Shown here: piece after piece, positions 1-6,200 of the stretch
Position numbering within the stretch: position 1 is the first letter of the stretch
How the letters are laid out: every line of letters starts with the position of its first letter
NCBI GenBank assembly: GCA_002779075.1
Contig: PEXK01000016.1
Coordinates: 1 to 6,200 of the forward strand
From: Candidatus Diapherotrites archaeon CG08_land_8_20_14_0_20_30_16
GTDB taxonomy: Archaea; Iainarchaeota; Iainarchaeia; Iainarchaeales; 0-14-0-20-30-16
DNA length: 6,200 nucleotides
Direction of reading: 5' to 3'
The notes under the pieces: generated by a model
What the model saw: the letters and a program-made list of their open reading frames with translations, nothing else
Database searches by the model: none
What the model was told of the DNA's origin: nothing
Program-made: the position numbers and the translations under genes

Positions 1-103
1 TGTTCAACTCTCCCGAATACTTGGAGGGATTGATTTTTAGTGCAACGATGCCAAAGGCAAAAAATCAAAGTCGTGAGCCATATTAATTTAAAGAGGACAC
101 TTT

Positions 104-129
104 AGGACGGCGGGACGCAGTCCTTTTTT
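104..129 (+). terminator. GC-containing hairpin followed by a T-run, a possible terminator for an upstream plus-strand gene ending before position 87
   Basis: aggac (104-108) pairs with gtcct (120-124) around an 11-nt loop (ggcgggacgca). A T-run at 124-129 follows directly. The stem is only 5 bp, and archaeal termination mainly needs oligo-T, so this is tentative. Confidence 0.3.
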
Positions 130-179
130 ATAATAGAAATTGTTGTGTATTTTTGTTCTGTGAGTCGCCGCCTTTTTTG

Positions 180-202
180 CTTCTTTTTTTCTAAAAAAGA
201 AG
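180..202. terminator. Perfect 10-bp AT-rich palindromic hairpin about 20 nt downstream of the bPH_2 operon stop; candidate terminator or protein-binding palindrome
   Basis: cttctttttt (180-189) pairs with aaaaaagaag (193-202) around a 3-nt loop. On the minus strand it supplies an oligo-T tract just after the operon stop (222-224). A hairpin of different sequence sits at the homologous position in the right repeat copy (1345-1363). Confidence 0.4.
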
Positions 203-221
203 ATAATATTTTCGGGGGGGA

Positions 222-764
222 TTATAAGCCAGAACCATGAGTTTGTTTAACTCTTTTCATAACGAATTCTCTAATTTTTTCAGCACCATTGATATCTATT
301 GCAGGTAAATGCCCCTCACTTTGATATCTCCTATTGCCTCTTCTTCCAAACCTAAAACCATAATGGCTTCCACCATATCCTGATTGTCCAGCAGTTTCAA
401 TTTCAACAGTAGAAAATCCAAACATTCTCGCGATTATTCCTCTTCTAATATCTACATTTTGAACTCTTTCATAAGGAATAGAAGTATATTTTTTCCAAAT
501 TATACCTCTCTCTACTTTAACTGCATCGTGAGTTATTTCATAAAGATATCTATTATAAGACATACGAGCATAAATCTCGGCTACAATAATTACAAAGAAA
601 ATGTAAAAAATAATGGCGAGAACAAAACCAACTCCTGTTGAACCTCCAGCAATTATTCTCAATAATTGAAAACTCCACATTGTAACAAAAATTCCAAGAA
701 TTATTAGAGGATAGTAAGCCCGAAGTCTGAAAAGCCATCTTGCCCCAGGATGCAACTTATCCAT
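222..764 (-). CDS. YdbS/YdbT-like bacterial-type PH domain (bPH_2, formerly DUF304) membrane protein, paralog 1, 180 aa, with a Gly/Arg-rich loop insertion
   Basis: ORF-track protein. It has two N-terminal hydrophobic helices (YYPLIILGIFVTMWSF and VGFVLAIIFYIFFVIIVAEIY). These are followed by the bPH_2-type core YNRYLYEITHDAVKVERGIIWKKYTSIPYERVQNVDIRRGIIARMFGFSTVEIETAG ... LPAI ... AEKIREFV, which matches the architecture I recall for Bacillus YdbS. The ATG (762-764) lies 3 nt after the TAA stop (768-770) of the upstream paralog. AGGAG (775-779 on the minus strand) is 10 nt upstream of that ATG. Confidence 0.85.
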   Translation of the reverse strand: MDKLHPGARWLFRLRAYYPLIILGIFVTMWSFQLLRIIAGGSTGVGFVLAIIFYIFFVIIVAEIYARMSYNRYLYEITHDAVKVERGIIWKKYTSIPYERVQNVDIRRGIIARMFGFSTVEIETAGQSGYGGSHYGFRFGRRGNRRYQSEGHLPAIDINGAEKIREFVMKRVKQTHGSGL

Positions 765-767
765 TTT

Positions 768-1268
768 TTATTTTCTCCTGCTTGTAATTTTCTTCATTAC
801 AAAATTTCTAATCTCTTCAGCATGTTTCATTTCAATAGCAGGAATATTTCCCTCTGCTCCTGCTGGCCCTGAAAATCCAGCAGTTTGAATCATCACACTT
901 GAAAATCCAAACATTCTCGCGATTATTCCTCTGTGAACATCAACATTTTGTATTCTTTTATAAGGAACATTGCTGTATCTCTTCCAAATTATACCTCTTT
1001 CTAATCTCAAACCCTCATCGGTAAATTCATAAAACCAACGATTATAAGACATTTGGGCATATATCTCGCTGATAATTATAACAAAAAGAAAATAACCAAA
1101 AATAGAAAGTAAAACGATAGGTAAAATTGAACTAGAACCTGCCAAACCTAAAAACAAACCTGCAAGAGGGACGATAATCCACATTCCAAAAAATATTCCT
1201 AAGAACCCAAATAGGAAATATCCTCCAATACGAAATTGCCATTTTGCTCCAGGATGTAATTTGTTCAT
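768..1268 (-). CDS. YdbS/YdbT-like bPH_2 (DUF304) membrane protein, paralog 2, 166 aa
   Basis: Same architecture as 222-764. It has the conserved N-terminus MNKLHPGAKW, two TM helices, and the core YNRWFYEFTDEGLRLERGIIWKRYSNVPYKRIQNVDVHRGIIARMFGFSSVMIQTAG ... IPAI ... AEEIRNFV. A hand alignment of the PH core gives 41 of 62 identical residues with paralog 1. A TATA-like box lies about 27 nt upstream of the ATG. Confidence 0.85.
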   Translation of the reverse strand: MNKLHPGAKWQFRIGGYFLFGFLGIFFGMWIIVPLAGLFLGLAGSSSILPIVLLSIFGYFLFVIIISEIYAQMSYNRWFYEFTDEGLRLERGIIWKRYSNVPYKRIQNVDVHRGIIARMFGFSSVMIQTAGFSGPAGAEGNIPAIEMKHAEEIRNFVMKKITSRRK

Positions 1269-1290
1269 GTTACATAATTAAATAAGAACT

Positions 1291-1300
1291 TATTTAAAAA
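1291..1300 (-). promoter_or_regulatory. TATA-box-like element for the bPH_2 gene pair (leaderless-type spacing)
   Basis: The minus strand reads tttttaaata, centred about 27 nt upstream of the ATG at 1266-1268. That is the usual archaeal TATA-to-TSS distance. No Shine-Dalgarno sequence lies in between. Confidence 0.45.
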
Positions 1301-1316
1301 GCTTTGCAAAATTTTT

Positions 1317-1495
1317 GGGGTGGAGAAAATATTATCAATGAATTTCTTTTGTGAAACAAAAGACTATTTGTGCGAAGCACCAAGGCGGCTCACTTTTTAT
1401 TTACAACAATTTCTACAATTTAGGGGCGGGTGGTCGGGGGTTTTAAAGTGTCCTCTTTACTAACTTTTTACTCTTTATCTTTGGCTCACGATTGA
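1317..1495 (-). repeat. Right copy (inverted) of the modular repeat flanking the bPH_2 gene pair
   Basis: See the block list for 65-220. Read on the minus strand, this copy has the same block order. Its variable segments are C-rich (cccccgaccacccgcccc and ctccacccc), where the left copy read on the plus strand is G-rich. The copy lies between the thioredoxin stop (1519) and the predicted promoter of the bPH_2 pair. Confidence 0.8.
1345..1363. other. 8-bp palindromic hairpin in the right repeat copy, positional counterpart of 180-202
   Basis: tcttttgt (1345-1352) pairs with acaaaaga (1356-1363) around a 3-nt loop. Its arms have the same T-rich/A-rich character as the left-copy hairpin but a different primary sequence. 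This suggests structure is conserved rather than sequence. Confidence 0.4.
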
Positions 1496-1518
1496 GCATA
1501 ACACCTATTTCACGAACT

Positions 1519-3351
1519 TCATTTATATTTCTCAATTAAATCTTTTATTTGTTTCTCTGGGTAAGAGCCAACAAAGAAGTCTTTTGCTATCCCATCTTTA
1601 AAGAAAATTACTGTGGGTATAGACATTACACCAAACTCTTCTGCCAACGCTTCATTTTGCTCAACATCAATTTTCACTAATTTCACTTTATATTCATTGC
1701 ATAGCTTTTCTAATAAAGGACCTAAAACCTTGCAGGGGCCACAATTATGAACAAGAAAATCATTAGCAAAAAAGTTATGGGGTTCTTTTGTAGATATAAT
1801 TTGAACAGATTTTAGATAAATATTTTTAATTTTAGATATTTTATTCCAAAATAACCCACCATTAATATATTCTTTTTTTAGCCAATCTTTATATTTTTCA
1901 TAGTGTTTGAATGTTGTGGGTTTATTATTTCCTTTTATCCAACCAAACACAGTATCATAACTCAAATTTAATTTTTCTGAGATTTTTTTAATTGAATGGT
2001 TTTTAGTATATAATTGCATAGCTTTATTGTGTTTTTTTGTCCAACAGTGTCTTTCATAAATTCTTTTTTTCAAAAATTCCCCTATTTTTATTGCATTTTC
2101 TTGTTTTTGTTTGCAATAGCTATAACCTATTTTATTGCATAAATTAAATCCATTTTCATAATTTGTCGTAAATTGTAAGTGTATTATTTTTGGAGTAATA
2201 CCATCCTTTCTCACATATTTTTCATCTTCACTAAAAATATTTCTTATTTTTATTCCAAAATTTGAAAATAACTTTGATAATTGTTTAGCATATTTCAAAC
2301 CGTTTTTCAAAGATTTGGGATTTTTATGAAATTCAATATCATTTAATAATAGATGGTCACAAGGGCCTTTGTTTTCTTTTCTTTGTTCTAAAAGAATAGT
2401 TGGCTTTGGGCCATCACCCCCAATATATCCAGATAAAAACTCCTTTTGAATGTTTTTAGAAGCTTTCATTAACCAAGACGGTAGGATATAATCTGTATTT
2501 GTTTTATTTCCTATAGGTACTCCTAAAGATTTAAACAAAAGCCATAAAGAAGTAGAGCAACATTTAACCCCATAACAATGTGTTGTAAATTTCCTCCCAA
2601 AGAGATTATTCTCGCTTATTTTTTCTTTTATGTGTGTTTTAAATCCTAAAATATTTAAATCATTTTCTATTTCTTTTGCATCCTGTTTTGTTCCAACAGT
2701 AAACGATATTTCGCGATAATTATTTTTGCCAATATAAAGATTTCCATCACTAAAAAGGCTTCCAATTAATCTAGATAATATTGTAATACATTTATTATTC
2801 GTTTTAAGAGGGAGCAGCCCCTTTTTTTTTAATTCAGTAATATAATCTTTGTGAGTCATTCTTTTTTCCAGAAACTTTAATATTAAGTTTTCATCAACAA
2901 GAGTAGTATCTGAAATATCTTCTTTAAATTTTTCAAAAGAAGGATGTATAGCAACACAATCGTTAACTCTCAAATTTTCTGCGGATTTCCACCCTTTTTT
3001 TGTAAAAAATAAATGATCATTCGTAATTTTAATGTTTCTTCCATTTTCAGTAGTTATAAATTTACAATGCCCTGCTTTTTGAGATTCAAAACTTTTCAAA
3101 ATAGATGTTGTTGTCAATTTGTTTTTATTAAAGCAAAGTACATTAGAGTTTTTCTTTAAGTCTTTGGCTTTTATTATATCTCGGTTGGTTAAAGCAATAT
3201 AAGAATCAGTACTTACGCACCAACTAGCATAAAAATCAACAATTACCAATGCTTTTTTGCTAGGTTCAACTACTTCTTTGTTAATATCAAATGCTTTAGA
3301 CCCTTCCACGAAATCACCAAATTCAAAAATTAGTAAAGAAAGAAAATTCAA
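1519..3351 (-). CDS. trxA: Thioredoxin precursor interrupted by a large intein (610-aa precursor; about 118-aa mature protein from the TTG start, or 104 aa from an internal GTG)
   Basis: N-extein: ...SKKALVIVDFYASW. C-extein: CGPCKVLGPLLEKLCNEYKVKLVKIDVEQNEALAEEFGVMSIPTVIFFKDGIAKDFFVGSYPEKQIKDLIEKYK. Joined, they restore VDFYASWCGPCK plus the cis-Pro motif SIPT and the FFKDG strand of the canonical thioredoxin fold. The ORF-track start at 3349-3351 is TTG, not ATG (checked by hand), so the true start is uncertain. The stop is TGA at 1519-1521. Confidence 0.9.
   Translation of the reverse strand: MNFLSLLIFEFGDFVEGSKAFDINKEVVEPSKKALVIVDFYASWCVSTDSYIALTNRDIIKAKDLKKNSNVLCFNKNKLTTTSILKSFESQKAGHCKFITTENGRNIKITNDHLFFTKKGWKSAENLRVNDCVAIHPSFEKFKEDISDTTLVDENLILKFLEKRMTHKDYITELKKKGLLPLKTNNKCITILSRLIGSLFSDGNLYIGKNNYREISFTVGTKQDAKEIENDLNILGFKTHIKEKISENNLFGRKFTTHCYGVKCCSTSLWLLFKSLGVPIGNKTNTDYILPSWLMKASKNIQKEFLSGYIGGDGPKPTILLEQRKENKGPCDHLLLNDIEFHKNPKSLKNGLKYAKQLSKLFSNFGIKIRNIFSEDEKYVRKDGITPKIIHLQFTTNYENGFNLCNKIGYSYCKQKQENAIKIGEFLKKRIYERHCWTKKHNKAMQLYTKNHSIKKISEKLNLSYDTVFGWIKGNNKPTTFKHYEKYKDWLKKEYINGGLFWNKISKIKNIYLKSVQIISTKEPHNFFANDFLVHNCGPCKVLGPLLEKLCNEYKVKLVKIDVEQNEALAEEFGVMSIPTVIFFKDGIAKDFFVGSYPEKQIKDLIEKYK
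1744..3219 (-). mobile_element. Class-1 intein (492 aa, precursor residues 45-536) with an embedded LAGLIDADG homing endonuclease, inserted in the thioredoxin WC|GPC active site
   Basis: The intein starts with Cys1 (tgc, 3217-3219) in a block-A-like CVSTDSYIALTN. Block B is GRNIKITNDHLFF (TxxH). The C-terminal blocks are KEPHNFFANDFLVHN, ending in His-Asn (aat, 1744-1746). It is followed by the +1 Cys (tgt, 1741-1743), which is the first Cys of CGPC. Codon positions were verified by hand on the reverse complement. Confidence 0.88.
2092..2799 (-). other. LAGLIDADG homing endonuclease domain of the thioredoxin intein (boundaries approximate)
   Basis: There are two LAGLIDADG-type motifs with conserved acidic residues. 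LSRLIGSLFSDGNL is at aa 192-205 (nt 2737-2778). EFLSGYIGGDG is at aa 304-314 (nt 2410-2442). The spacing of about 110 aa is typical of a pseudo-dimeric single-chain enzyme. Confidence 0.8.
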
Positions 3352-3421
3352 AACATATATAAAGATAGTTTATACAATAGTAGAATAAACCCATATTTAA
3401 GAGGTTCATCTAATGTTAACC

Positions 3422-3429
3422 TTATATAT
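3422..3429 (+). promoter_or_regulatory. TATA-box-like element for mcm (leaderless-type spacing)
   Basis: ttatatat is centred about 25 nt upstream of ATG 3450. It lies in the 98-nt divergent intergenic region shared with the thioredoxin gene. Confidence 0.45.
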
Positions 3430-3449
3430 TTTTCTGTAAATATATAGGT

Positions 3450-6200
3450 ATGGTTGAAGATTTCCAGACAGAGCAGAAGGACAATGAAAACAAAGATTAT
3501 GCTGAGGATTTTGAGGATTTGGAAGACAAACTTGCCCCTAAAGCTAGCACTGAAACTAGTTTGCCTGAGAAAACAGAAGAGCTCGAGCCAGAATTTGAAG
3601 AAGATGATAATGTAAATCCTTTTGTTAAGAAATTTCAATACTTTTTTGATAAATATTATAAAACAAAATTAGAAAAACTAATTCAAGATTATCCCACAAA
3701 GAAAAGTTTGTACACTGATTTTAATACCATCGAACAATATGACCCTGATTTGGCAGATCAGCTTATAGATAATCCAGAATACGTGCTTGAAGCTATGCAA
3801 TTAGCAACTCAGAAGTATAAGTCTAGTTTATTAGAAGAAACAAAAGAATTTGAGCCAATTATAAGAGTAGGAAACCTGCCTAAAGATAAGCAGATTTTGA
3901 TAAAAAATATTTCTTCAAGACATATAGGCAAATTTGTTTGTGTTGAAGGTATTGTAAAGCAGTTTACAACTGTTTTGCCTAAAATAAAAAAAGCACATTG
4001 GATATGCAAAAAATGTGGTAGTGAACTAGATTTACATCAGGAAGGCCTAGATTTTAAAAAACCTAAAATGTGTCCTGAATGTAAACATAGGGAATTTATT
4101 TTAGATGAAAAAAATAGTGAATTTCAGGATTATCAAAAGTTAGAACTACAAGATCTTTTAGAAGAACTAAAAGGTGGAGAACAAGCAAGCACAATTCACG
4201 TATATGTATCAAATGATTTAGTAAATACATTTACTGCTGGTGAAAGACTAATTGCTACAGGAATATTAAAATTGAGAACACCACAAGATCTTAAACAAAC
4301 TGTTTTTGGCCAATATATTCTTTGTTCTTCTTTGGAATCAAGCAAGCAGGAATATGAAACTATTGAAATAACAAAAGAAGATGAAGAAAGAATAAAAGAA
4401 TTTTCAAAAAATCCAGAAATCTATGATTTGTTAATAGATTCTGTTGCCCCTCACATTTTTGGTCATAATGAAGTAAAAGAAGCAATCATTATGCAGTTAT
4501 TTGGAGGAATAAGAAAACATTTAATAGACAAATCAAGAATCAGAGGAAACATTCACGTATTGATAGTCGGTGATCCTGGAACTGGCAAAAGTAAACTTCT
4601 GTTAGCTGTAGCACAAATTGCTCCAAAAAGCATTTATGTCGCAGGTAAAACTGCTTCAGGAGCCGGTCTTACGGCAACAGCAGTAAAAGATGAATTTGGT
4701 GAAGGTGGTTGGACATTAAAAGCTGGTGCTTTGGTTTTAGCAAATGGCGGATTTGCAATGATTGATGAATTTGATAAAATGGATACTGAAGACAGAAGTG
4801 CAATGCATGAGGCACTTGAACAGGAATCATATCATAAAGATTTTGAAATTATGCTTTCTGATGGTACAAAAGAAAAAATAGGTAATTTGGTTGATAATTT
4901 AATTGAAAAAAACAAAACCAAAATTATACTGGGAAAAGACTGTGAACTATTAAAAGTAAATAATTTGAAAGTAATAACTACTGATTTCAAAAACACCTTT
5001 CCTATAAAAGTAAATCGAGTAAGCAGACATATTGCTCCAAATAAATTTGTTGAAATAACATATTCTAATGGTCGTAAAATAACTGTAACTCCGAGTCATC
5101 CTGTTTTTGTTTTTGAAAGCAATGAATTTATTGAAAAACCAGCAGATTCTCTTAAAGAAGGTTTGTTTTGCCCTTGTATAAATAATGGAAAATTAAAGAA
5201 ACAAAATATAATAAATTCAAACATAGGCCTTGTCTCAATTAAAAAAATACAAATTATTCCAAACAAAGATTCAAAATGGGTATATGATGTCACAGTAGAA
5301 CCTACAAAGACTTTTATCACTGGTGGTTTGGTGTTACACAATACAGTATCAATTGCGAAGGCAGGTATTGTAACATCTTTTAAAACAGAAACAACTGTTT
5401 TAGCTGCTGCAAATCCAAAATATGGTAGATTTGATGCTTATAAAACAATTCCTGAACAAATAGAAATACCACCAACATTAATGTCTAGATTTGATTTATT
5501 TTTTGTATTACAAGATATTGTTGATGAAAAAAGAGATAATGAAACAGTTTCTTCAATACTGAAAACACACAAATCTGGAGAATTGCTACAAAAAGGAAAT
5601 GTTGAAAGATTAACAGAAAGAGAAACAACAACATTGGAAAAAATAAGTTCAACACCTGCATTACCATCTGAATTTATACAAAAATATATTTCTTATGGCA
5701 GAACAAGAGTTTTTCCTGTTTTAACTGAGGCTGCTAGCAAAGCAATTCAGAAATTTTTTATTAATTTAAGGCAAAAAAGTCAGGGTGGAAGAGTTACTGT
5801 AACATACAGGCAGTTAGAAGCTTTAGTCAGATTGTCAGAAGCAAGCGCGAGAGTCAGACTCTCTGAAACTGTTGGTGAAGAGGATGCTAAAAGAGCAATT
5901 AGATTATACAAACGGTCAATGGAGCAGGTAGGTTTAGATCCTGAAACAGGAACAATTGATATTGATATTATAACAACAGGTCAATCACACAGCCAGGCAA
6001 ACAGAATGATGCGTGTTGTTGAAATAATAGGCAATATAATGAAGGAACAAAACGGCCAATGCGCAAAAATAGATACAATAGTTCAAGAAGCAGAAAAAGA
6101 AGGCATGGACAAAGGAAAAGTAAAAGAACTTGTTGAAAAACTTTTGAAAGTCGGAGATATCTATGAACCTCGAAGTTCTTGTTACATGACTACCAGCAAA
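3450..6200 (+). CDS. mcm: MCM replicative helicase, 3'-partial (917 codons open to the window edge, no stop), interrupted by a mini-intein
   Basis: Hand translation in the frame starting at ATG 3450, which is the first ATG after the in-frame TAA at 3417-3419. Zinc ribbon: CKKCG...CPECK (4005-4082). Walker A: GDPGTGKS (4569-4592). Walker B: FAMIDEFDKM. Then HEALEQE[intein]TVSIAKAGI, sensor 1 VLAAANP, arginine finger SRFDL, and sensor 2 VTYRQLEALVRLSEASAR. The C-terminal winged-helix-like end is LLKVGDIYEPRSS, so the gene is nearly complete. This ORF is not in the supplied ORF track. Confidence 0.95.
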   Translation, partial: MVEDFQTEQKDNENKDYAEDFEDLEDKLAPKASTETSLPEKTEELEPEFEEDDNVNPFVKKFQYFFDKYYKTKLEKLIQDYPTKKSLYTDFNTIEQYDPDLADQLIDNPEYVLEAMQLATQKYKSSLLEETKEFEPIIRVGNLPKDKQILIKNISSRHIGKFVCVEGIVKQFTTVLPKIKKAHWICKKCGSELDLHQEGLDFKKPKMCPECKHREFILDEKNSEFQDYQKLELQDLLEELKGGEQASTIHVYVSNDLVNTFTAGERLIATGILKLRTPQDLKQTVFGQYILCSSLESSKQEYETIEITKEDEERIKEFSKNPEIYDLLIDSVAPHIFGHNEVKEAIIMQLFGGIRKHLIDKSRIRGNIHVLIVGDPGTGKSKLLLAVAQIAPKSIYVAGKTASGAGLTATAVKDEFGEGGWTLKAGALVLANGGFAMIDEFDKMDTEDRSAMHEALEQESYHKDFEIMLSDGTKEKIGNLVDNLIEKNKTKIILGKDCELLKVNNLKVITTDFKNTFPIKVNRVSRHIAPNKFVEITYSNGRKITVTPSHPVFVFESNEFIEKPADSLKEGLFCPCINNGKLKKQNIINSNIGLVSIKKIQIIPNKDSKWVYDVTVEPTKTFITGGLVLHNTVSIAKAGIVTSFKTETTVLAAANPKYGRFDAYKTIPEQIEIPPTLMSRFDLFFVLQDIVDEKRDNETVSSILKTHKSGELLQKGNVERLTERETTTLEKISSTPALPSEFIQKYISYGRTRVFPVLTEAASKAIQKFFINLRQKSQGGRVTVTYRQLEALVRLSEASARVRLSETVGEEDAKRAIRLYKRSMEQVGLDPETGTIDIDIITTGQSHSQANRMMRVVEIIGNIMKEQNGQCAKIDTIVQEAEKEGMDKGKVKELVEKLLKVGDIYEPRSSCYMTTSK
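4827..5342 (+). mobile_element. Mini-intein (172 aa, no endonuclease domain) in MCM, Ser1 ... His-Asn with +1 Thr
   Basis: Removing 4827-5342 gives HEALEQE-TVSIAKAGI. This aligns position for position with the canonical MCM HEAMEQQTISIAKAGI. The insert starts SYHKDFEIMLSDGT (block A with Ser in place of Cys). It has block B RKITVTPSHPVFV (TxxH) and ends WVYDVTVEPTKTFITGGLVLHN, followed by Thr (aca, 5343-5345). Confidence 0.85.

Follow-up and report, generated by a model that had tools for sequence, protein, structure and literature searches.

The closest structural matches to the element described here are the endonuclease-bearing inteins TliVMA and PhoVMA (Protein Data Bank entries 7qss and 7qst), PI-TkoII (2cw7), PI-PfuI (1dq3), and PI-SceI (1vde), which reside in V-ATPase, DNA polymerase, and ribonucleotide reductase and combine a Hint (splicing) domain with a two-motif LAGLIDADG homing endonuclease and an accessory DNA-binding module. 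We analyzed a stretch of 6,200 nucleotides, here called the window, from Candidatus Diapherotrites archaeon CG08_land_8_20_14_0_20_30_16 (assembly GCA_002779075.1, contig PEXK01000016.1, positions 1 to 6,200) and found an intein of this build within a thioredoxin gene (trx), where it separates the tryptophan from the first cysteine of the WCGPC redox center. The resemblance is one of fold and domain content (Foldseek E values of 3e-16 to 1e-9) at 10 to 16% sequence identity; unlike these inteins, the thioredoxin intein carries a helix-turn-helix (HTH) module after the endonuclease and has no block F aspartate. Nearer relatives, with 26 to 36% identity, occupy aRF1, RNA polymerase subunit B (RpoB), uS12, RtcB, a HerA-like ATPase, and other proteins; they are homologous over the whole intein and share its domain order and HTH module, but they use other hosts and sites, mostly retain the block F aspartate, lack a His-Cys pair that characterizes the thioredoxin inteins, and fall outside the thioredoxin clade. 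From its sequence and predicted structure, we consider it likely that the element, which resides in thioredoxin in a DPANN archaeon, is an ordinary selfish homing intein whose host gene is unusual.

A second group of described systems bears on the position of the insertion. Disulfide traps that control splicing have been documented in natural and engineered inteins: the bond joins Cys-3 to Cys1 in the Pab MoaA intein, as in the engineered Ssp DnaE trap, and Cys1 to Cys+1 in the Pab PolII intein (PMC3922620, PMC10663303), and an internal disulfide is formed in the Mma PolII intein (PMC3922620). An initial annotation of the window, which proposed that splicing of the thioredoxin precursor is gated by redox state, had invoked the Ssp DnaE and MoaA traps as precedents; both exist, but the Cys1-Cys+1 bond that it attributed to MoaA belongs to Pab PolII. 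In the MoaA and Ssp DnaE inteins, as here, a flanking extein cysteine lies within a turn of a catalytic intein cysteine, an arrangement in which a disulfide can retain the precursor until reduction. Their Cys-3:Cys1 bond is on the N-extein side, stops splicing at step 1, and has been shown experimentally, whereas the candidate Cys+1:Cys+4 bond of the thioredoxin precursor is on the C-extein side and would be formed by the redox center of the host itself. The PolII inteins are oxidation controlled through Cys1 and Cys+1 (Pab) or an internal cysteine (Mma), and the thioredoxin intein possesses Cys1, Cys+1, and an internal Cys96; the PolII hosts are replication proteins, however, and the disulfides of the thioredoxin intein are candidates only.

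None of the literature searched describes an intein that occurs naturally in thioredoxin, in keeping with the novelty claimed by the initial annotation; the papers returned concerned engineering or were unrelated, and thioredoxin is not mentioned in the text of the main prokaryotic intein survey (Novikova). The insertion site appears to be undescribed in that literature, but the sequences themselves are public and numerous. They carry the names "thioredoxin," "thioredoxin domain-containing protein," or "hypothetical protein," or no name at all, and the failure to label thioredoxin-intein precursors as inteins constitutes a gap in annotation. The host is of a new type, a small redox enzyme outside the set of replication, repair, and ATPase proteins that dominates intein catalogues.

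Anatomy of the precursor

The boundaries of the intein are exactly those given in the initial annotation (Table 1). The precursor reads ...ALVIVDFYASW / CVSTDSYIAL...NFFANDFLVHN / CGPCKVLGPLLE..., with the C-extein opening as CGPCKVLG, and removal of the intein in silico restores DFYASW-CGPCK; the W/C...HN/CGPC junctions bear out the proposal that the nucleophilic cysteine of thioredoxin is the +1 residue of the intein and the resolving cysteine its +4 residue. Profile hidden Markov models recognized the insert as an intein, with scores above cutoff for Pfam Intein_splicing (PF14890; 63.3 bits, cutoff 35.8), TIGR01445 intein_Nterm (27.1, cutoff 24.5), and TIGR01443 intein_Cterm (18.9, cutoff 15.6), and the top NCBIfam match was the intein part of the model for intein-containing RtcB (NF038162, RtcB_rel_intein; 205 bits). 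With the exception of the block F aspartate, the canonical splice residues are all present and are invariant across 18 to 55 homologues. Cys1, which is Cys45 of the precursor, is a cysteine in every one of the 58 thioredoxin-hosted sequences with coverage there; the threonine and histidine of the block B TxxH motif are found in 66/67 and 67/67 thioredoxin-hosted inteins, respectively; block G supplies H535-N536, followed by C537 at +1, and HN-C is invariant in the alignment; the block F histidine (H525) is also present in the window intein.

An AlphaFold2 model of the precursor, computed with 55 homologues as input, had a mean predicted local distance difference test score (pLDDT) of 90 and a predicted template modeling score (pTM) of 0.83. 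Its top Foldseek matches in the Protein Data Bank were TliVMA (7qss), PI-TkoII, PI-PfuI, and PI-SceI; after these archaeal and yeast endonuclease-bearing inteins came mini-inteins (root mean square deviation [rmsd] of ~2 Å), free LAGLIDADG enzymes, and thioredoxins. The endonuclease part matched I-DmoI, E-DreI, I-WcaI, and bI3 maturase with a Foldseek probability of 1.0 over 216 to 300 alignment columns (target-normalized template modeling score of 0.45 to 0.61), and the predicted secondary structure agrees with the alpha-beta-beta-alpha-beta-beta-alpha pattern of the LAGLIDADG fold. Both LAGLIDADG motifs retain their aspartate, and the endonuclease thus looks as intact as was initially supposed. 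The segment that follows it forms predicted helices at residues 414 to 494, contains an invariant tryptophan (W471), and matches Pfam HTH_28 and HTH_23 below threshold; in all probability, this segment is an additional domain that binds DNA. By domain content and predicted fold, the 492-residue insert is a genuine bifunctional intein composed of a Hint domain, a double-motif LAGLIDADG endonuclease, and an HTH module.

The host protein is equally recognizable. Pfam Thioredoxin (PF00085) scored 81.7 bits on the precursor (cutoff 23.5), and TIGR01068 scored 92.7 on the split protein, slightly below its cutoff of 96.8. The IPT loop that contains the cis-proline (P579) is invariant in the alignment of homologues, and the C-extein of the model superposes on thioredoxins with an rmsd of 1.1 to 1.5 Å over 75 columns. 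When the spliced sequence was used as the query, the ten best matches were intein-free thioredoxins with 59 to 72% identity (nine of 98 to 100 residues and one of 143 residues), and in the alignment with syntenic intein-free thioredoxins WCGPC was colinear, as the initial annotation had anticipated. The 118-residue spliced product that it proposed is less likely than one of about 104 residues. Syntenic intein-free orthologues begin MTLDLNKD..., equivalent to precursor residue 19, and their alignment to the N-extein begins at the 3309-side start in the three loci designated L088, L090, and L092; residues 1 to 18 of the precursor have pLDDT values below 50 and are predicted to be disordered. For these reasons, the true start is probably the GTG at position 3309 rather than the TTG at 3351. 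The 615-residue NCBI call for the precursor is, like the TTG start, probably overlong (3307-3351, minus strand). An identical protein is present in NCBI, JGI, ENA, and Logan assemblies (NCBI assigns it to a metagenome-assembled genome [MAG] of Candidatus Diapherotrites and labels it hypothetical), and its recurrence in independent assemblies led us to reject a chimera or other assembly artifact.

Table 1. Coordinates of the precursor, its parts, and associated genes (window positions unless a locus is named)
Feature	Position (nt)	Strand	Remarks
Thioredoxin-intein precursor, open reading frame (ORF)	1519..3351	-	610 aa from TTG at 3351; sole long minus-strand ORF of the window
N-extein (VEGSKAFDINKEVVEPSKKALVIVDFYASW)	3220..3309	-	Thioredoxin helix alpha1 and strand beta2; last residue is Trp of WCGPC
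Intein	1744..3219	-	1476 nt, 492 aa, Cys1 to His-Asn, between Trp and first Cys of WCGPC
N-terminal Hint (splicing) lobe	2914..3219	-	Contains Cys1 (3217-3219); matches Ssp DnaB intein 1mi8, E 1e-6
Gly94-His95-Cys96 signature	3064..3072	-	Hairpin strand opposite block B; thioredoxin-hosted inteins
Block B, T110-N-D-H113 (TxxH)	3013..3024	-	From alignment of homologues
LAGLIDADG homing-endonuclease core	2122..2913	-	Foldseek: I-DmoI, E-DreI, bI3 maturase, PI-PfuI
LAGLIDADG motif 1, RLIGSLFSD202G	2743..2772	-	D and G invariant in 55/55 aligned homologues
LAGLIDADG motif 2, FLSGYIGGD313G	2410..2439	-	GGDGP invariant in 55/55 aligned homologues
Helical/HTH module	1864..2121	-	Residues ~411-496; endonuclease on one side, C-terminal Hint lobe on the other
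C-terminal Hint lobe, blocks F and G (KSVQIISTKEPHNFFANDFLVHN)	1744..1863	-	Block F Asp position is Ile518 (1798-1800)
C-extein	1519..1743	-	Cys+1-Gly-Pro-Cys+4 (1732-1743), remaining thioredoxin, stop codon
Free-standing endonuclease genes	L003 6001-7074; L005 3652-4821; L007 736-1785; L113 1-900 (also L094-L096)		Upstream of trx
Paired membrane proteins, bacterial PH domain bPH_2	222-764, 768-1268	-	Tandem paralogues, E ~1e-18 to 1e-19; downstream of trx
MCM helicase gene	3450..6200	+	Divergent from trx; extends 9 nt beyond window end; syntenic with trx in intein-free relatives
MCM mini-intein	4827..5342	+	172 aa; HEALEQE/SYHKDF...GGLVLHN/TVSIAKAG; Ser1, Thr+1

A family of thioredoxin-hosted inteins

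The insertion is not an isolated occurrence. When databases were searched with the precursor, about 46 other clusters (at 90% identity) of ~600-residue proteins were retrieved that are 40 to 49% identical to it, share the insertion, and in each case combine Thioredoxin and Intein_splicing domains. An intein at the thioredoxin site was also present at no fewer than 20 additional metagenome loci. The site is always W/C...HN/C-x-P-C, where x is mostly G and otherwise P, S, N, A, or M. The clusters come from DPANN archaeal metagenomes, and the few named carriers are MAGs of Woesearchaeota, Nanoarchaeota, and Diapherotrites; among the matches listed in a scan of a genome collection, at least one species representative (L008, Woesearchaeota) has the intein in thioredoxin. 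A library of representatives at 50% identity added two distant thioredoxin inteins, P0068, with a CMPC motif, and P0075. The 239-residue precursor P0105 contains a mini-intein of about 125 residues at the W/C...HN/CGPC site, from which the endonuclease and HTH module have been cleanly deleted and whose Hint sequence is akin to that of the P0013/P0017/P0018 group.

Phylogenies were built by neighbor joining from Kimura distances, with bootstraps, and are distance trees. In the tree of 154 inteins, the thioredoxin-hosted members, P0068 included, form a single clade, which points to one ancestral invasion of the thioredoxin site. Among the relatives in other hosts, four uS12 precursors of about 650 residues (P0087, P0092, P0103, and P0116) contain a related endonuclease- and HTH-bearing intein at ...RKC/V(A/T)PDT...(S/G)N/CVRVQL.

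Probable homing, empty sites, and selection

From the sequence, we infer that the intein can splice, that its endonuclease is active, and where it would cut, and we suggest the following cycle. The precursor would be translated whole, and the intein would excise itself by class 1-type protein splicing, in which a thioester forms between Cys1 and Trp-1, the nucleophilic cysteine of thioredoxin (+1) attacks that thioester, the terminal asparagine cyclizes, and an S-to-N shift regenerates WCGPC in a mature thioredoxin of about 104 residues. The endonuclease would cut intein-less trx alleles across ...GAYTTYTGGGCN NNN TGG/TGY GGN CCN TGY..., and repair would copy the intein into the break. The candidate homing site is GTNGAYTTYTGGGCNNNNTGG|TGYGGNCCNTGYAAR (19 junctions and 3 empty alleles); constraint on it at the nucleotide level beyond that of coding was rejected, since third codon positions vary freely. 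The position of the intein can be understood from the near-universal motif in DNA and protein, which offers a durable target and makes imprecise deletion impossible, together with the need for a cysteine at +1; these two factors would suffice to explain it, and a regulatory role need not be invoked.

Empty sites are available for comparison. In the three intein-free loci that we examined (L088, L090, and L092), trx has a divergent MCM gene as its neighbor, as in the window, where the interrupted trx occupies the position of the orthologous gene beside MCM; judged by this synteny, the three genes are orthologues of the window trx in which the insertion site is empty. The exteins of other intein-bearing precursors are only 32 to 45% identical to those of the window, in contrast to the identities with intein-free thioredoxins given above. 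Since its closest syntenic thioredoxin orthologues manage without it, the intein is, on this evidence, dispensable, and we regard it as a mobile, sporadically distributed homing intein. For one pair of loci, L107 and L110, the nonsynonymous divergence (dN) of the intein was half that of the exteins (0.25 versus 0.50), and this lower divergence suggests transfer between diverged alleles. The GC content of the intein is 26.2% (1744-3219), compared with 33.3% for the exteins, 31.9% for MCM, and 33.6% for the bPH_2 genes.

Selection appears to act most strongly on the mobile part of the element. Endonuclease and HTH module together are the best-conserved portion of the precursor (mean identity of 46%, versus 41% for Hint and 39% for the exteins), and the ratio of nonsynonymous to synonymous divergence (dN/dS) was ~0.10 to 0.12 for the endonuclease and ~0.1 to 0.18 across the Hint and endonuclease domains, rough values obtained from only three sufficiently close pairs with saturated dS (1.8 to 2.8). 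By this measure, the endonuclease is under purifying selection.

Not everything fits a selfish element in regular motion. Over the 44 full-length members, inteins have diverged to a similar extent as exteins, with a moderate correlation between the two (Mantel r of 0.46; 0/2,000 permutations), and for this reason much of the history looks like prolonged vertical inheritance of intein and extein together, not like frequent transfer; nearest neighbors of intein and extein agree in 16 of the 44 members, and gain or loss would be mixed in. Persistence over such a time could signify a benefit to the host. No relatives of the endonuclease were found on viral contigs, and there is hence no sign of a viral vector. 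The Pfam LAGLIDADG models miss their thresholds (LAGLIDADG_3, PF14528, 15.4 bits against a cutoff of 22.5; E value of 0.02). Finally, the window intein is without the block F aspartate that acts in steps 1 and 2 of canonical class 1 inteins, so that its mechanism may be different or its splicing slow or conditional. We count these points against the selfish-intein account and still consider it the probable one.

A remodeled catalytic core

The loss of the block F aspartate is a property of the family. This residue is present in 120 of 125 relatives in other hosts and in 1 of 57 thioredoxin-hosted inteins, where lysine (18 sequences), arginine (15), valine (10), isoleucine (7), or another residue takes its place. 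The thioredoxin inteins have acquired a Gly94-His95-Cys96 signature in turn: His95 is found in 64/67 thioredoxin-hosted inteins versus 5/119 in other hosts, and Cys96 is found in 65/67 versus 9/119. In the AlphaFold2 model, strands 96 to 101 and 106 to 110 form a hairpin that ends in block B, an arrangement that would set His95 and Cys96 beside the active site. All of these changes trace to one clade, and the loss of aspartate and gain of the His-Cys pair therefore count, as far as the tree allows, as a single evolutionary event; they hint at coadaptation of intein and extein around the thioredoxin cysteines.

One explanation that follows from this pattern is splicing assisted by the extein, in which the low-pKa thiolate of Cys+1, at the N-terminal end of helix alpha2, or the His95-Cys96 pair, or both, would take over the function of the missing aspartate, with a prefolded C-extein as a requirement. 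The block F aspartate reportedly stabilizes the thiolate of Cys1 and helps the +1 residue to attack (PMC10663303), functions for which a replacement might be needed, and helix 539 to 553 of the model already starts at CGPC in the precursor. We nevertheless think this explanation rather unlikely. With a single phylogenetic origin, the correlation between host and core amounts to one event; the substitutes at the block F position are variable, with no single residue standing out; and the distant member P0068 has neither the aspartate nor the GHC motif. Some characterized inteins that lack the block F aspartate still splice.

A broader proposal, to which we would likewise assign only a minor chance, is that the family is an old, single-origin DPANN clade with a core rebuilt around the redox center of its host, aspartate lost and His-Cys gained, such that splicing would require the thiolate of Cys+1 and would vary with the redox state of a cluster made up of Cys1, Cys96, Cys+1, and Cys+4. 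If true, the thioredoxin intein would be a naturally occurring conditional intein with a direct connection to the thiol-redox system.

Possible redox gating

The initial annotation suggested built-in gating: a disulfide between Cys+1 and Cys+4 or between Cys1 and Cys+1 would block trans-thioesterification, and active thioredoxin would be made only under reducing conditions. In the adaptive version considered here, a Cys1-Cys96 bond could have the same effect, mature thioredoxin might feed back positively, and selection would retain the intein for this purpose. Conserved cysteines, three or four in number (Cys1, Cys+1, Cys+4, and the invariant Cys96 of the intein), lie at the splice junction or close to it, the disulfide traps of the Pab MoaA, Pab PolII, Mma PolII, and Ssp DnaE inteins offer precedents, the clade-specific exchange of aspartate for His-Cys suggests adaptation to a thioredoxin extein, and intein and extein have long resided together. 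Gating is chemically plausible, but no feature of the sequences calls for it. Conservation of Cys+4 is fully accounted for by thioredoxin function; the changes in the core represent one event in one clade; the closest syntenic orthologues function without an intein; and the part of the precursor that is best conserved is the endonuclease, as would be expected if selection favored homing and not regulation. Any intein with Cys1 and Cys+1 is sensitive to oxidation in vitro, so that sensitivity alone would be no proof of adaptation, and the sequences do not separate an evolved switch from incidental thiol sensitivity. On balance, we regard adaptive gating as unlikely.

The locus is attractive for study whichever explanation holds. 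The element is compact, with a precursor of ~600 residues and a product of 104 residues, and is easy to express. The extein cysteines relevant to splicing are the redox pair of the host and occur together with clade-specific catalytic changes, which makes this an unusually clean system in which to ask whether inteins are environmental switches or mere parasites. Empty alleles, full inteins, a mini-intein, and free-standing endonucleases around one gene open the homing cycle, and the entry of endonucleases into inteins and their exit from them, to investigation.

Free-standing endonucleases beside trx

Seven proteins of 337 to 389 residues (P0050 to P0055 and P0063) are homologous to the endonuclease and HTH part of the intein only, with 44 to 48% identity, and have no Hint blocks. 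In four distinct lineages, an intact trx that has no intein is immediately preceded by such a gene, which overlaps it or is within 30 nt of it on the upstream side, and the active-site motifs of the adjoining thioredoxins are WCGPC, WCSSC, WCSPC, and WCFPC. In the neighbor-joining analysis, the free-standing genes are monophyletic (92/100 bootstraps) and nested within the intein endonucleases (92/100), a topology that suggests that the endonuclease left its intein and yet stayed by its target gene. The direction of this change is only weakly supported by distance trees whose outgroups are distant, and the free-standing form could capture the transition from intein to free endonuclease or the reverse. 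A split-intein or "fractured gene" arrangement was considered and rejected, as the neighboring trx is uninterrupted and the sequences on either side of the endonuclease genes contain no remnants of Hint.

"Intronless homing" in T-even phages and the yeast HO endonuclease, which is derived from an intein, provide parallels for these copies beside trx. Unlike the phage enzymes and HO, the copies occur in an archaeal chromosomal context and have no Hint remnants. Their existence also raises the question of domestication, in which the endonuclease-HTH unit, represented by the free-standing copies, would be of use to the host, for instance in regulating trx by binding to DNA or in some other genome function. 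The high conservation of this unit and its immediate proximity to intact trx in four lineages speak for such a role. The catalytic aspartates of both LAGLIDADG motifs are, however, invariant in the free-standing forms too, which points to nuclease activity; the distribution is sporadic; and a free-standing homing endonuclease gene beside its target is a known selfish arrangement in phages. Domestication therefore seems very improbable to us. Least credible of all is a dead insertion, a nonsplicing intein that has left trx a pseudogene or an inactive fusion protein, because the missing block F aspartate and the predicted disorder of the 18 N-terminal residues are set against more than 50 homologues, ~40 to 50% identical, that keep open frames, intact exteins, Cys1, TxxH, HN, and C+1, against the low dN/dS of the Hint and endonuclease domains, and against the location of the gene at the orthologous trx position next to MCM.

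Two other copies of the endonuclease were seen away from these arrangements. At locus L121 (1-858 and 906-1301), a free-standing endonuclease resembling P0054 lies just downstream of an ORF that resembles a reverse transcriptase and bears a YVDDFV motif; no trx gene is present up to the point where the contig stops. At locus L120 (2501-2950), a lone endonuclease fragment of 150 codons, covering the region of the second motif, is found in an unrelated context and looks like a decayed copy.

Neighboring genes

The two bPH_2 genes downstream of trx in the window are not conserved beside the intein-free trx orthologues. MCM, on the other side, has an intein history of its own. The orthologous MCMs of L090, L092, and L088 lack the mini-intein that interrupts it in the window. 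In L088, the MCM gene (1036-4782, minus strand) is instead interrupted elsewhere, at ASGAGL/C...VHN/TATAV, by a different LAGLIDADG intein of full length. By these comparisons, MCM displays the same dynamics of presence and absence at two other intein sites, and the relatives differ at three sites in two adjacent genes.

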